A stretch of 64,000 nt of DNA, taken from Candidatus Parvarchaeota archaeon. Lineage in GTDB: Archaea; Nanobdellota; Nanobdellia; Parvarchaeales; Parvarchaeaceae. The stretch lies in contig JAMCRN010000009.1 of the NCBI GenBank assembly GCA_023380585.1, positions 2,524-66,523 of the forward strand, read 5' to 3'. The translations under genes were made by a program, and so were the position numbers. Within the stretch, counting starts at the first letter, position 1, and every line of letters starts with the position of its first letter. The notes under the pieces are model-generated. The model did not search any database. It had not been told where the DNA came from and saw only the letters and a program-made list of their open reading frames with translations. Below are positions 10,217 through 15,290 of the stretch, one piece after another.

Positions 10217-10219
10217 GTC

Positions 10220-10292
10220 TGGGCCCAGGGAGGTTCGAACTCCCGACCTTTTCCATGTGAAGGAAACGTCATAACCGCTAGACCATGGGCCC
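10220..10292 (-). tRNA. tRNA-Val(CAC)
   Basis: GGGCCCA/TGGGCCC acceptor; TTTCC-TT CAC AT-GGAAA anticodon arm; GTTCGAAC T-loop; discriminator A; no encoded CCA. Confidence 0.95.
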
Positions 10293-10303
10293 ATTTAGGT
10301 CTT

Positions 10304-11329
10304 TTAAAGGCCTCCGCCTCCACCCAGCTGAGAGCTAGCGAAGAAAGTGGAAACGCCGAACCTGACCACGAAAAATATCGCTATTCCTATCAAAGCGTAA
10401 ATAGGCGCTTTTTTCATTCCATCTTTTGCCTTTCCCGTGTTCAATATTCCCCCGAGTATGGCGCTCGAGCCAGTTGTTATTATGACATTTATAACCGAAA
10501 TGACCAGTATAAGAGTTACAGGCACGCTAGGAAGGCTAAATGATGAAAATATACCGACCCCAACAGAGGGAACGTTCGCCGTAGAGGCACCAGATACTTT
10601 GCTTATATTATCAAGTATACCTATAAGGAAGGATGCGACACCGTAGAGTAGTGGTGCAGCTATTGTAGAAGCCAAAAATATAAAAAGAGCATAACTCCTG
10701 ACCTGGGCTTTCATATCATTCCTTATTGACTCGTTTTGAAGCATGTTGTCGGCCAGGTTTTCCAGGATCAGATGTAATTCAGCCCCAGCACGTATTCCCT
10801 CAGATATTATCCGCATCGTATCCTTAAAGAACAGAGAACTCGTACGTCCTGACATATCCATTAAAGCCTCCGCGAAATTTCTACCACCTTGGACTTCAAT
10901 AGCGGCGCTGCTAAGCAGGTAGTTTAGTTTCCCGAATTCTGGCTTTATGGAAGCGAGAAAAGAATTCTCAGGTATCATCCCCGCGCGCAGGTTCGCCGCC
11001 ATCAACAGGAGCATATCTGGCAGGACCTTCTCTATGCTAGTCGCTACGGAGTCAGAGATGGCTGAGAACACAGAATCTATCAATACGCTCCCCCCGAAAT
11101 ACACAAGAGGCGCGCTCACAATAGAAAAGATTATACTTTTAGTGAATACAAAAAGGACTATCGGCACCAAAACCGTCATTATCAGAATAGCGAGCGTTAC
11201 AAGGCCTGTGAGTTCAGATATTCTATCAGTGTTTATCTGGGCCGTCATTATATTGTTTGCAATGGATTTCCTTACTTTACTAAAAAGAAGAAATTGTAAA
11301 TTGAACAGAAAGTTGTGCTTCTCGTCCAT
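10304..11329 (-). CDS. Type II secretion F / TadC-like pilus platform protein
   Basis: LPDMLLLMAANLRAG, multiple TM helices, downstream of pilus ATPase; start set to ATG 11329. Confidence 0.9.
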   Translation of the reverse strand: MDEKHNFLFNLQFLLFSKVRKSIANNIMTAQINTDRISELTGLVTLAILIMTVLVPIVLFVFTKSIIFSIVSAPLVYFGGSVLIDSVFSAISDSVATSIEKVLPDMLLLMAANLRAGMIPENSFLASIKPEFGKLNYLLSSAAIEVQGGRNFAEALMDMSGRTSSLFFKDTMRIISEGIRAGAELHLILENLADNMLQNESIRNDMKAQVRSYALFIFLASTIAAPLLYGVASFLIGILDNISKVSGASTANVPSVGVGIFSSFSLPSVPVTLILVISVINVIITTGSSAILGGILNTGKAKDGMKKAPIYALIGIAIFFVVRFGVSTFFASSQLGGGGGL

Positions 11330-11330
11330 C

Positions 11331-12233
11331 TCACACACCAACAGCAGGCCTTCTGCTCTTTACCATCCCCATAAAGAACACCTGGAAAAGAATTAAGAAT
11401 GCAGGCACCATATATATCAGTGCAACTATGTCAAAATGCGCAAGAGAACCGAGTATTATGAAAACAGACATGCCTAAGCTAGGCAATACCACCGAAACAA
11501 GCATATAACCCATTGACATAGGAGTAAGTTCTGCGGCATAAGAGCGCATATCAGACTGCTGTTTTTTCACAAGCATGTCGTTTATGAGGGTAAGCGTTCC
11601 GCGCATGTCGCTACCTGATTTCATCGAATTTACTATTATGTCTATCGCCCTCCTAAGCGATTGGGATGGCACGCGTTTTGAAAGATTAGTGAGAGCTGCA
11701 TCCTGTCTTTCCCCAGACTGGATCTCTTCGACGGTTTTTTTAAATTCTGTAGAAACAACACCATAATCCCCGTTTGAAACGTCCAACAGTGCGTTAAATA
11801 CAGGCACACCAGATCCGACCTTTATCATAAGCTCTCTGACAGCAAAGACAACTTTCTCGTCTATTTTTGCCCTTCTTTTTGATGCAGATAACTTAGGATA
11901 GTTTATAAAGTAGACGAAATATATCCCCGGTACAAGGAAGATCATAAGGACCAGTATGGCGGTAAGATTCATCGTAAGTATCCCTTTTTTAATCGCTATC
12001 AGCAGTAATGAGACAGCTATTACAAGAAGCAATGCCATCAATGCCAGCGCTACGAATATACCGGCCGATACGTAATCCAATGGGTCTATATCTATCCCGC
12101 CTTCTATTAGAGACATTTTCAGGCCCTTCGTCGAATTTATAATTACATAGGCCAGCCCTTTGAACTTTCTACCAAAATACAAAGCCTTGTCTTGGCTTAC
12201 TATTATACTCGGCATTACCCTCTCTTTCATCAT
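11331..12233 (-). CDS. Type II secretion F / TadB-TadC-like pilus platform protein
   Basis: KVGSGVPVFNAL...YGVVSTEF...SGSDM T2SSF pattern; TM helices. Confidence 0.9.
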   Translation of the reverse strand: MMKERVMPSIIVSQDKALYFGRKFKGLAYVIINSTKGLKMSLIEGGIDIDPLDYVSAGIFVALALMALLLVIAVSLLLIAIKKGILTMNLTAILVLMIFLVPGIYFVYFINYPKLSASKRRAKIDEKVVFAVRELMIKVGSGVPVFNALLDVSNGDYGVVSTEFKKTVEEIQSGERQDAALTNLSKRVPSQSLRRAIDIIVNSMKSGSDMRGTLTLINDMLVKKQQSDMRSYAAELTPMSMGYMLVSVVLPSLGMSVFIILGSLAHFDIVALIYMVPAFLILFQVFFMGMVKSRRPAVGV

Positions 12234-12237
12234 ATCG

Positions 12238-13755
12238 CTAAGTCTCCAAAACTTCAGGCTCTTCGTCGGCGGCTACCACTCCCATTAACTTTTCTTTATT
12301 GATGTAATAATTACTCGTTATAAGTCCTATTTTATTTACAGAAGCCACTTTTTTATGGGACATCCATTTGAGGATTGACACTTTCTCGCTTATATCTTTT
12401 TTCATCTCTTCCGCGGTCATACCGGAATAAAGCTCCAGCTTGTTAGCGATCTTCTGTGATATGTTTATAGTCCTCTCTATCGTGTCTGTCCTTGGCTTCC
12501 ACTCGAATAGATTATTTGTTTTTATCTCCGTCTTTCCAACTACAGAACGTTCGGCGACTTCAGCAAGTTCAAGTACACGACGCAGCCCACTTCTTCTCTG
12601 CCTGAACGCTGTTATTACCAAGTCTAGGGTGGACACTTCTATCTCAGGAAGATTTATAGGCTCAGAAAGAAGCCTTTTAATAACCTGTTGGGCTGTTTCA
12701 GCATGAAGAGTAGCATAAACAGAGTGTCCAGTCATAAGCGCTTCAAAAAGAGTTTCCGCGTCTTCTTTCCTTCTTATCTCACCGACGACTAGTCTGTCGG
12801 GCCTCATCCTAAGCGAATTCAGAAGAAGATCAAGCATGGTTATCTCTCCTTTGCCTTCGGAATTAGGCTGCCTTGTAACCATCGGCACCCAGTGCAGGAA
12901 TCTAGGCAGAACAAGCTCATTTGTATCCTCTATCGTTATTATTCTCTGGTTCGGAGGTATGAAAGGTAAGAACACGTTCAGAAGGCTAGTTTTACCAGAT
13001 GCTGTACCTCCTGTTACAATCATAGACAGCTCGTACTGCATCGCTTGCCATACAAACGCGGTCAATTCTGGGGTTATAGTGCCCTTAGTGATAAAATCGA
13101 CGATTGTCCATGGTTCTTCTCTAAATTTTCTTATGTCGAAAGTGTTGCCGTGTACAGATATAGGATATAAGGTCGCGTTTACACGGTCGCCGTTGGGTAG
13201 CCTTGCGTCAAGCAAAGGAGATAGAGTGGTTATCTGCCTACCCACCTTCCTTGCGACTTGCTGTGCGAAGTTTTCTATCATCTTCTCTGTTTCTATCCTT
13301 ATAGTGGTCTCAAGCCAGCCATATTTTATGTGGTATACCATAACGTTGGTTTTGGAGTCGTTTACTACTATCTCTTCCAGATTCTTGTCATTGTCCAATA
13401 TCTCTAAGACCCCAAGTCCGAACATCTCATGGAGAAGCGTGGCGGATAACTCTATGTAAACTCTCTCCTCCATACCCGGAAGTATCGTCTTCAGCTTATC
13501 AGACGTAAGATCCAGAAAATCCGTCCTCAAAGTAGGGGAGTAGCTCTCAGACAGGGTCTGTATTTTAAGAGGGTACTCCTTTATCAATTCTGTCCTTATC
13601 TCTGTCAGCACCGCTCTGATTCCAGGGTCTATAGCCGGCACTTTTATATTATACACAGATGTAAATTTACCAGGCACTCTCTCGATGCTTACCCTAGCTA
13701 ATACACCGTCAGAAATAACGTCATAGCTTTCAAGCACTTCGACGCGCTGCTCCAT
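12238..13755 (-). CDS. Type IV pilus assembly ATPase (CpaF/VirB11/ArlI family)
   Basis: GGTASGKTS, TIEDTNEL, LRMRPDRLVVGEIR, TGH...TLHA. Confidence 0.95.
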   Translation of the reverse strand: MEQRVEVLESYDVISDGVLARVSIERVPGKFTSVYNIKVPAIDPGIRAVLTEIRTELIKEYPLKIQTLSESYSPTLRTDFLDLTSDKLKTILPGMEERVYIELSATLLHEMFGLGVLEILDNDKNLEEIVVNDSKTNVMVYHIKYGWLETTIRIETEKMIENFAQQVARKVGRQITTLSPLLDARLPNGDRVNATLYPISVHGNTFDIRKFREEPWTIVDFITKGTITPELTAFVWQAMQYELSMIVTGGTASGKTSLLNVFLPFIPPNQRIITIEDTNELVLPRFLHWVPMVTRQPNSEGKGEITMLDLLLNSLRMRPDRLVVGEIRRKEDAETLFEALMTGHSVYATLHAETAQQVIKRLLSEPINLPEIEVSTLDLVITAFRQRRSGLRRVLELAEVAERSVVGKTEIKTNNLFEWKPRTDTIERTINISQKIANKLELYSGMTAEEMKKDISEKVSILKWMSHKKVASVNKIGLITSNYYINKEKLMGVVAADEEPEVLET

Positions 13756-13782
13756 TTCAATATTTAGAAATTTTACATTATA

Positions 13783-13895
13783 TACTTTAAAGGGGCAACG
13801 GATGCTCTACCTGGTTGAGCTACGAGCGCATGCGCTCGAGGGGATTTGAACCCCCAACCAACCGGTTAAAAGCTTCATCTGCCCCCTTTAAAGTA
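13783..13895 (-). tRNA. Circularly permuted tRNA-Lys(TTT): 3' half 13831-13873, 5' half 13799-13829, break at 30/31
   Basis: Minus strand reads leader - GCTTTTAACCGGTTGGTTGGGGGTTCAAATCCCCTCGAGCGCA - T - GCGCTCGTAGCTCAACCAGGTAGAGCATCCG - trailer. Rejoined halves give a full cloverleaf; leader and trailer are complementary and form a strict BHB. Confidence 0.92.
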
Positions 13896-14045
13896 ATATT
13901 AGTCAGATGCATTATAGTTATTTATGTATTTTAGTGCATGAAAACGATATCTGCGTTTAAAGTGATAATTATGTGTTTTTTGGTTTCTGAAGGTAAATCA
14001 TCCATCCTACATACTGTTTATAAGTTTTGAAAAACTCCTTATGAC

Positions 14046-15290
14046 ATGATAAATTCGCTGTCTGTGAGCTTTTTTCTCTTAGGAGCAGCTGCTGTCTTGT
14101 TTATAGGGTTCGTAGGAAGGGCCATGGCTAGGAAGACGTCCATCCCGCATATAGTATGGCTTATGCTCTTTGGGATAGCCATAGGCCCGGTATTCGGCCT
14201 CTTAAAAAGGCCAGTTTTGCTGGAATTTCTTCCTTTTGTTACCAGCATAGTCATAATAATAGTACTTTTCAACGCAGGACTCAGCATAAACATAAAAAAG
14301 ATAATAAAAGGCGTATCCAAAAGCGTAGTGCTGGCGATAACAAACCTAACGCTTGCTGCAGCGGCTACCGTAACCATATTATATTTTCTTGGGTACCCTC
14401 TTACCACGTCTGTGCTTATTGGATTGATAGTCGGAGGCCTTAGCGCTTCGATAATACCCGGATTTGGGAGTCTCTCTGCTTACAGCGACAAGATAAAGAC
14501 GATAATAAACCTAGAATCCATAATAGCAGAGCCATTGGCGATAATATTTGTCCTAGTTTTTGTAAGCGCGTTCTTGCTACATGATTATTCCCCAGGATTT
14601 ATAGCGAGTAAGCTGATATCAGAATTTTCTATAGGGATAGTCATAGGAGCGGTATTCGGGCTCGGGTGGGTACCAGTCATGAGCCATTTTCAAAGGTATA
14701 AATATGAGTATTCCTATGCCGGCTCTCTTGCGATAGTATTCTTTCTATACATAATAGTACAGGGTATGCAAGGAAGCGGCCCAATGTCAGCATTGGTATT
14801 CGGAATGTTCCTCGCAAATGGGGAAGACATATTCAAAGCGCTAAAATATAGGCACGGGGTGTCGTTTACATTAAGTAAGGAGTCTAGGTCGTTTAACGAC
14901 CTAGTGGCGTTCCTTACTGCTTCTTTCTTCTTTGTTTACTTCGGCGCTCTCATATTCCTGCAAGATTATTATGCATTTGCTATAGGCGTGGCTATAGCCG
15001 TGTCCCTGCTCATAGCCAGGCAGATAGGTACAAGACTTGCCCTTTTGAAGTCCCAATTCGTATCGAAAGATAAAGCCGTGATCTCATCCATGCTAACACG
15101 TGGGACAGGCGCAGCCGTCGCGGCAGCTATCCCTGTGGGTTTAGGAATAGCTGGAAGTGGAGACTTTATAGACATAGCAGCAAGCACGATAATAACGACT
15201 ATAATCCTAACAGTAATAATGGGCAAGGTCTTCAAACAGAATCAGCCCCAAAAAACAGTTAAACAAACTCTTAGAAAAAGTAGCGTATGA
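14046..15290 (+). CDS. CPA1 (NhaP-like) cation/H+ antiporter
   Basis: Many TM helices; LFNAG, LES, SGPMSALVFG, TRG motifs. Confidence 0.88.
   Translation: MINSLSVSFFLLGAAAVLFIGFVGRAMARKTSIPHIVWLMLFGIAIGPVFGLLKRPVLLEFLPFVTSIVIIIVLFNAGLSINIKKIIKGVSKSVVLAITNLTLAAAATVTILYFLGYPLTTSVLIGLIVGGLSASIIPGFGSLSAYSDKIKTIINLESIIAEPLAIIFVLVFVSAFLLHDYSPGFIASKLISEFSIGIVIGAVFGLGWVPVMSHFQRYKYEYSYAGSLAIVFFLYIIVQGMQGSGPMSALVFGMFLANGEDIFKALKYRHGVSFTLSKESRSFNDLVAFLTASFFFVYFGALIFLQDYYAFAIGVAIAVSLLIARQIGTRLALLKSQFVSKDKAVISSMLTRGTGAAVAAAIPVGLGIAGSGDFIDIAASTIITTIILTVIMGKVFKQNQPQKTVKQTLRKSSV

Follow-up and report, generated by a model that had tools for sequence, protein, structure and literature searches.

Bulge-helix-bulge (BHB) motifs are substrates of the archaeal splicing endonuclease (EndA). 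Among archaea, circularly permuted tRNA genes, in which the 3' part precedes the 5' part, are described from Thermofilum pendens, where the genes are single copy, the BHB is formed by the flanks, the spacers are short (7 and 1 nt), and one promoter lies upstream; the 1-nt spacer is that of tRNA-Tyr, in which CCA is encoded (PMC3218864). The same layout is described for Cyanidioschyzon, green algae, and the Bigelowiella nucleomorph, with a circle detected by RT-PCR, CCA added later, and one tRNA-Lys(UUU) among the genes (PMC3978253). Published permuted junctions are classified as types I to V, located at 15/16, 20/21, 37/38, 50/51, and 59/60 (PMC3978253, Table 1). Two other kinds of element are related in part. 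The split tRNA-Lys(CUU) genes of Nanoarchaeum equitans and Staphylothermus are broken at 30/31 into halves of 31 to 32 nt and 43 nt that are joined through a BHB (PMC3218864), and the YrlA Y RNAs (RF02553) have the order T arm, closed acceptor stem, and D arm (PMC4201824; 10.1101/312249).

The gene described here shares with those of T. pendens the single-copy, 3'-part-first arrangement, the flank-formed BHB, and the short spacer. It lies at positions 13783 to 13895 on the minus strand of the window (the whole stretch of 64,000 nucleotides that was analyzed) and is a circularly permuted tRNA-Lys(UUU) gene (Table 1). A sequence-only reading had proposed reversed halves with a break at 30/31 and a 1-nt spacer, and all of its coordinates proved exact, with the leader, tRNA positions 31 to 73, one U, positions 1 to 30, and the trailer following one another on that strand. 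After in silico rejoining (74 nt), ARAGORN called tRNA-Lys(UUU); on the window itself, ARAGORN and Rfam model RF00005 at its gathering score gave no match, as had been expected of standard scans. The rejoined cloverleaf is canonical, but the anticodon arm is not restored exactly as had been claimed, since its stem consists of 4 bp plus a U27·U43 mismatch. The gene has four defining features of circularly permuted tRNA genes, namely, the order of the parts, the canonical cloverleaf, a junction-restoring BHB, and no normal back-up gene found in the 83%-complete genome. With the halves 1 nt apart in reversed order, it does not have the separate transcripts that define a trans-spliced split tRNA. 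The TATA-like box upstream of the 3' part is suggestive of a single promoter, and a spacer of only 1 nt could not accommodate another promoter apart from the tRNA itself. TATA-like words before the normal tRNA genes of the host peak at -31 to -34, in an AT-rich background.

Table 1. Features of the permuted tRNA-Lys(UUU) locus (window positions)
Feature	Position	Strand	Details
TATA-like box ATAAATA, candidate sole promoter before the 3' part	13919..13925	-	From the sequence; 30 nt upstream of the leader start
Leader	13874..13895	-	Outer-stem strand 13895-13880; central-helix strand GAUG 13879-13876; bulge AA 13875-13874
Predicted EndA cut, leader side	after 13874	-	Second bulge base
3' part, G31-A73, 43 nt	13831..13873	-	Anticodon UUU 13870-13868, T arm, acceptor 3' strand, discriminator A73; without CCA
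Spacer U, 1 nt, linking A73 to G1	13830..13830	-	Acceptor hairpin G71-(C72 A73 U G1)-C2
5' part, G1-G30, 31 nt because of 17a	13799..13829	-	Central-helix strand C25-C28 13804-13801; bulge C29 G30
Predicted EndA cut, 5'-part side	after 13799	-	Second bulge base
Trailer	13783..13798	-	Third bulge base at 13798, followed by the outer-stem strand that pairs with the leader
Type IV pilus/archaellum-type ATPase gene	12238..13755	-	Directly downstream; context that marks the orthologous locus; best FlaI-like, below all curated cut-offs

The host, which we take to be a tiny acid-mine archaeon, is represented by an assembly of 702 kb in 31 contigs that is 83% complete. No 16S rRNA was found in the assembly, and the lineage was assigned from protein matches; the best relatives of the adjacent ATPase, including those from Parvarchaeum/Parvarchaeota, share about 70 to 76% identity with it. 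The earlier reading had suggested checking whether the genome lacks another Lys(UUU) gene, and ARAGORN, pattern, and BLAST searches of this 83%-complete genome found neither a second gene nor a further half. ARAGORN predicted 45 tRNA genes, among them Lys(CUU) and not Lys(UUU), and CCA is encoded in only 1 of the 45. In a crude ORF set, 5973 of the 160,557 codons are AAA, which tRNA-Lys(CUU) is unable to read under the established wobble rules. The permuted gene is the only known AAA reader of the cell, although a second gene could be missing at 83% completeness. The other tRNA genes of the host (G000) include, on contigs C6, C21, and C23, two A34 tRNAs, Pro(AGG) and Leu(AAG), as well as a tRNA-Ile(UAU) gene that contains an intron and is mislabelled by ARAGORN; several further intron-bearing tRNA genes appear to be mislabelled as well. 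A34 tRNAs and such Ile(UAU) traits have been published for ARMAN-4/5 (PMC3239211).

The flanks and the two parts of the tRNA form a strict BHB of the geometry proposed earlier, with helix h CUUU/AGAG, central helix H GAUG/CAUC, bulges CG^U and AA^G, and then h'. The leader and trailer pair in the outer stem, as had been stated, but their complementarity is imperfect in that the leader carries one extra G (5 G versus 4 C). The predicted folding energy of the 113-nt strand is -52.9 kcal/mol (z -5.9), a value reached by 0 of 200 shuffles, and none of 2000 trailer shuffles matched the leader-trailer duplex. The strict BHB is not the minimum-energy fold (MFE); it lies 3.9 kcal/mol above the MFE and makes up about 0.1% of the ensemble. 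This is no objection, because by the same measure the BHBs of intron-bearing tRNAs of the same genome lie 4.1 to 16.2 kcal/mol above their own MFE (7 of 11 genes gave a register, some of them doubtful). In the predicted precursor, the T arm and acceptor hairpin are already formed and the D arm is paired elsewhere. The central helix and bulges are invariant in relatives, with GATGAA and CATCCG each present in all 10 permuted genes found; the CATCCG positions vary in normal-order Lys genes. The outer stem covaries, and each of its 10 pair columns shows two-sided changes. Among nine genes, 93% of cells pair, against 42 to 51% in slid controls, and two-sided changes occur at 15 of 30 pairs. Between lineages, leader identity is 12 to 69% versus 84 to 100% for the 3' part. 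Three genomes of one sister genus (G167, G098, and G111 of g18) have a short outer stem that is no better than shuffles (171 to 191 of 2000 as good) and an acceptor stem with a C5·A68 mismatch.

The survey of related genomes that the sequence-only reading had suggested was carried out with a covariance model trained on five naturally occurring permuted genes. A permuted gene was found in 10 of 40 genomes of the family at 105 to 129 bits, the next score being 42; 4 of the 10 are training sequences of the model and 6 are not. All three genera are represented (4 of 33 genomes in g1, 4 of 5 in g18, and 2 of 2 in g100). Of the 40 genomes, 26 have a normal-order Lys(UUU) gene, in most cases at the same locus, and 5 yielded neither form. 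In G042, which is 98% complete, model and pattern searches found no Lys(UUU) of either form, nor one beside NusG; its gene may be unassembled or otherwise disrupted. The spacers of the permuted genes in relatives are 1, 2, 3, or 4 nt long. Both forms occur only in G017, and its standing as a two-form genome was set aside: its permuted contig (L205, G017:C20) is 98.7% identical to G167:C39, from another genus (g18), while the EF-2 genes of the two genomes are 72.8% identical, so the contig is probably mis-binned. In the other nine genomes with a permuted gene, no normal copy was seen.

Beyond the family, the model gave 7 matches above 100 bits in 151 genomes of the class (6 from the family and one from G039), and two weak matches were tandem tRNAs. 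A pattern search of 401 genomes of the class, which sees only some tRNA types, matched in 52, and 11 of the matches were permuted genes (10 in the family and one in G039). For the remaining matches, ARAGORN identified ordinary tRNA genes at 19 loci, 18 of these being tandem arrangements, and 23 places were judged by eye only. The gene of G039 (C7; L031:985-1098), from another family of the class, is a permuted tRNA-Ile(GAU) with a 30/31 junction, a 2-nt spacer, and an outer stem of 11 bp, and its central helix shows a compensatory change; it was not found in G062, of the same genus. Metagenome contigs yielded at least 118 permuted-pattern loci (the script was run on 118 of 118 and the model on 80 of 118). 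Among the metagenome matches listed, only L248 is a clear 30/31 permuted gene, and it matches the G039 Ile gene in the printed stretch. A further metagenome locus, L271, is cut by a contig end. Viral contigs yielded 29 permuted-pattern loci, none above 43 bits on the model, most of which are tandem tRNA arrays and some YrlA-like. When Rfam was applied to 18 metagenome and 2 viral loci, 17 of the 20 matched YrlA, one above the gathering score. Two viral loci (L238:278-378 and L227:276-377) are tRNA-like in permuted order without a clear anticodon and have weak YrlA scores. L251 and L311 (196-266, minus strand) score as YrlA (45.4 bits for L251), yet their Ile(UAU) anticodon loop looks intact and 5 bp of stem span a break at 29/30; an element of this kind may be intermediate between permuted tRNAs and YrlA.

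The acceptor strands of the host gene are joined by only A73 and one further base, that is, by a 2-nt loop. All eight permuted Lys genes with 1- to 2-nt spacers have C2:G71, both of those with 3- to 4-nt spacers have G2:C71, and G2:C71 is also found in all 41 normal Lys genes examined (25 UUU and 16 CUU). The link between C2:G71 and short spacers is probably a single evolutionary event and hence not a statistical result; the permuted Ile gene of G039 keeps G2:C71 with its 2-nt spacer. In the predicted fold, C2:G71 would yield G-(C A N G)-C, which has the framework of the gCUUGc hairpin, where C and G of the loop pair with each other and enclose two bases (PMC10401711); CNNG loops are likewise favoured (PMC11773311). 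The loop bases between C and G are A-U or A-A in the permuted Lys genes. Pairing of a retained spacer base with A73 was considered and ruled out, as the base that ends the spacer varies among the 10 genes (4 with U, 6 with A). Tandem tRNA genes only 1 nt apart (counted after the discriminator) occur in 3 of the 401 class genomes (G161 at L385, G164:C20, and G324:C69), which indicates that linkers of this length are resolvable in linear precursors. Tandem spacers of 2 to 3 nt are common in the class. Opening of a 2-nt loop by RNase P or RNase Z has no precedent in the portions of the literature that were covered.

Permuted and normal genes share a NusG-Lys-ATPase synteny, with divergent NusG-L11 on one side and the pilus-type ATPase on the other; it is carried by the permuted genes of G169, G170, G006, and G020 and by the normal genes of most g1 genomes. 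In the window, NusG has moved away, and the neighbours are the pilus-type ATPase and an antiporter. The gene block at window positions 10219 to 13755 is conserved throughout the genus and comprises the ATPase gene, two platform-like genes, and tRNA-Val(CAC). Relative to the ATPase, the normal Lys(UUU) gene has an inverted orientation in G017, G045, and G009.

The history of the locus was examined with two single-gene trees, one of EF-2 (23 of 41 rows, LG+G4, two outgroups) and one of the ATPase (27 rows). The genus topology is (g100,(g18,g1)), EF-2 proteins across the three genera being 63 to 83% identical to that of the host; the three presumably correspond to the three Parvarchaeales genera treated in PMC10134863. 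In the EF-2 tree, permuted g100 branches first, followed by permuted g18 and then by g1, within which the permuted host, G006, and G020 stand among normal clades. Monophyly of the normal set (plus two unscored genomes) was rejected (p-AU 0.007), as was that of the permuted set (p-AU 0.003), and at least 3 changes are needed. The permuted state is ancestral for the family, because the EF-2 and ATPase trees share a backbone on which g100 and g18 are permuted. It appears on balance to have arisen once, on the family stem, the probable source being a Lys(UUU) gene interrupted by an intron at 30/31, after which most g1 species reverted at the same locus, probably on two or more occasions. The EF-2 tree fits one gain with two reversions and a sequence of gain, loss, and regain equally (3 changes each), and the former is modestly preferred.

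Regain would mean that g1 was ancestrally normal and that the host lineage and G006/G020 recovered a permuted gene through a transfer that involved only the tRNA gene. This is doubtful, even though it is equally parsimonious on the EF-2 tree and the host leader is 69% identical to that of G128 of the sister genus. The ATPase follows the EF-2 tree, so the transfer would have been confined to about 110 bp, and the flanks of G006/G020 differ from those of all possible donors seen. That the tRNA-ATPase locus was transferred as a whole from the sister genus was ruled out by the ATPase tree, in which grouping of the host gene with that of G128 (g18) was rejected (p-AU 0.0002). Returning to reversion, simple unscrambling of a permuted copy does not explain the normal g1 genes, because these have G2:C71 and C50:G64. 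They differ from the Lys(CUU) gene of their own genome by 6 to 20 changes in five genomes, similar to their distances from permuted copies. Reversal of a tmRNA gene permutation was reportedly described by Williams in 2004, to judge by the title, and would be a precedent for a return to normal order, in tmRNA rather than in tRNA.

An intron-bearing 30/31 intermediate was not found in the five family genomes searched. Elsewhere in the class, normal-order Lys genes with a break at 30/31 were seen. Lys(UUU) genes with a 30/31 cis-intron occur in G036 (136 nt; L206:8629-8839) and G087 (45 nt; L414:1430-1549), and in G177 (L416) about 135 nt separate the G+C-clamped halves of a Lys(CUU) gene broken at 30/31, which are possibly adjacent split halves. 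Intron-bearing Lys genes of this kind fit the published models of origin by duplication or reverse transcription. In G031:C7 (L207), the two halves of a Lys(CUU) gene are on the same strand, about 640 nt from each other, and have a 13-bp G+C clamp, a break near 22/23, and an N gap just upstream; this gene is probably trans-spliced.

The genome encodes one EndA of 172 aa, residues 5 to 171 of which align with a single gap to PDB 1a79, which we take to be the alpha4 EndA of M. jannaschii. From this alignment, the host enzyme appears to be a loop-less alpha4 type with no specificity-loop insert. Relaxed EndA recognition has been tied to specificity loops, and ARMAN-4 is without L3 (PMC5829648); an EndA without such a loop fits the invariant strict BHB. 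The same EndA type cut a permuted-mimic transcript in vitro (as cited in PMC3978253). RtcB, RNase P RNA, Rpp29, a CCA enzyme, and an RNase Z-like protein (first 60 residues scanned) are also encoded. In the RNase P RNA (G000:C10; L044:1501-1777), a short hairpin replaces a 36-position segment of the model (by reading, the P15/L15 region), and an insertion of about 33 nt precedes the 3' strand of the last helix.

With this enzyme set, maturation would begin from a single transcript starting near 13895, whose leader and trailer would zip up and hold the strict BHB, as its sequence and covariation suggest. By the established chemistry of the two enzymes, EndA would then cut behind the second base of both bulges, and the joining of G30 to G31 by RtcB would give a 75-nt circle. 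The circle would refold into the cloverleaf, with the acceptor stem capped by C72-A73-U-G1 on G71-C2 in a compact gCUUGc-like loop. RNase Z might finally cut after A73 and RNase P before G1, so that one U is lost, and the CCA enzyme would complete the tRNA.

The reading as a permuted tRNA-Lys(UUU) is supported by the conserved and covarying structure, by the near-exclusivity of permuted and normal genes, and by the enzymes encoded, and the gene very probably yields a functional, BHB-processed tRNA. An assembly artefact, a natural concern given that tRNA genes are frequent mis-assembly points, is refuted at the DNA level and has next to no probability left. Contigs from two other studies span the gene, one (X4 record 8) covering 13626 to 14400 with 0 differences and the other (X5 record 11) covering 13300 to 14072 with 1 difference, outside the gene, and the gene recurs in nine other genomes with different, self-complementary flanks. 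That the element is instead dead, left over from an integration or a tandem duplication, and that the real Lys(UUU) gene lies in sequence missing from the assembly, is very improbable. The incomplete genome, the two forms in G017, and the acceptor mismatch in three sister-genus genomes could be cited for it, but the element is kept across three genera with compensatory changes in flanks and tRNA stems, no normal copy was seen in the other nine genomes with a permuted gene, and the G017 contig looks mis-binned. A YrlA-type Y RNA, that is, an unspliced tRNA mimic whose closed acceptor stem tethers Ro60, would have the same topology, and the element scores 44.3 bits (E 1e-8) against RF02553, which is also the family to which metagenome matches to the permuted pattern often score (among the matches listed). 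The score falls below the gathering score of 69, with the 3' strand of the Ro-binding module deleted in the alignment; no TROVE/Ro60 (PF05731) match was found in the 83%-complete genome or among the neighbouring ORFs; and the complete Lys anticodon loop, the invariant BHB, and the near-exclusivity with the normal gene speak against a Y RNA, which is rejected as extremely improbable.

Given a functional permuted tRNA, a circle-first order is fairly probable. The converse order, in which the acceptor hairpin is opened by RNase P and/or RNase Z before EndA and RtcB join paired halves as in a split tRNA, with no circle, seems less likely. In its favour, RNase P can cut the closed 7-bp acceptor hairpin in the unspliced YrlA of M. 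smegmatis (PMC4201824), the T arm and acceptor hairpin are present in the predicted precursor, and the archaeal processing order is described as unknown by Soma 2014 (PMC3978253). A circle has been detected in algae, however (PMC3978253), and the D arm is mispaired in the predicted precursor, so that the elbow usually needed for end processing should form only after splicing.

A wider view can be offered tentatively. A permuted gene that arose once at the family root may have been squeezed to a minimum, with a two-base cap obtained through the 2:71 swap (a gCNNGc di-loop) and a circle opened by RNase P and RNase Z, or another nuclease, without real leader or trailer. Most species of one genus would then have reverted in place at least twice, and Lys 30/31 would be a hotspot of interconverting intron, split, permuted, and normal forms in one archaeal class. 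The occurrence of the 30/31 break as cis-intron, split, and permuted gene in one class bears on the debate about tRNA gene origins, and permutation appears to be reversible. The locus offers a natural spacer series of 4, 3, 2, and 1 nt at one orthologous position, beside normal-order relatives. Two questions left open in Soma 2014, namely, whether a circle forms in archaea and how a minimal loop is opened, become testable in vitro with five small identified components. Since ARAGORN and Rfam miss such genes, some of the "missing tRNAs" in DPANN genomes may be permuted.

No permuted tRNA in DPANN archaea and no permuted 30/31 junction is reported in the open-licence PubMed Central and bioRxiv literature covered, including PMC3218864, PMC3978253, PMC3239211, PMC5829648, PMC12397907, and PMC13718433, together with PMC10134863, PMC4201824, PMC10401711, PMC11773311, 10.1101/312249, and 10.64898/2026.05.13.725050. 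Relative to that literature, the 30/31 permuted junction, which matches none of the published types I to V, the DPANN host, and the 2-nt acceptor loop are new; a 1-nt spacer in itself has a precedent in T. pendens tRNA-Tyr. The earlier remark that unusual tRNA-Lys genes are known from Nanoarchaeum and ARMAN lineages holds for the split Lys(CUU) of N. equitans, broken at 30/31 (PMC3218864), but the tRNA section of PMC3239211 describes no split or permuted Lys gene in ARMAN. The split Lys(CUU) genes differ from the permuted gene in having two transcripts joined in trans, the anticodon CUU, and no covalent link in the acceptor stem (PMC3218864). YrlA is encoded beside Ro60, with no BHB or decoding role described in the sources cited above, whereas the Parvarchaeota gene has a subthreshold YrlA score, no Ro60 found, and an intact anticodon. 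In algae, spacers are 5 to 74 nt long, Lys(UUU) is broken at 59/60, and none of the listed junctions lies in the anticodon stem (PMC3978253). In T. pendens, the junction is at 59/60 and encoded CCA makes the loop about 5 nt long with a 1-nt spacer; the corresponding values for the Parvarchaeota gene, which lacks CCA, are 30/31 and 2 nt. The archaeal permuted tRNAs published in the open-licence literature thus comprise two genes from one species, to which Parvarchaeota adds a family-wide case in a host with a loop-less alpha4-like EndA.
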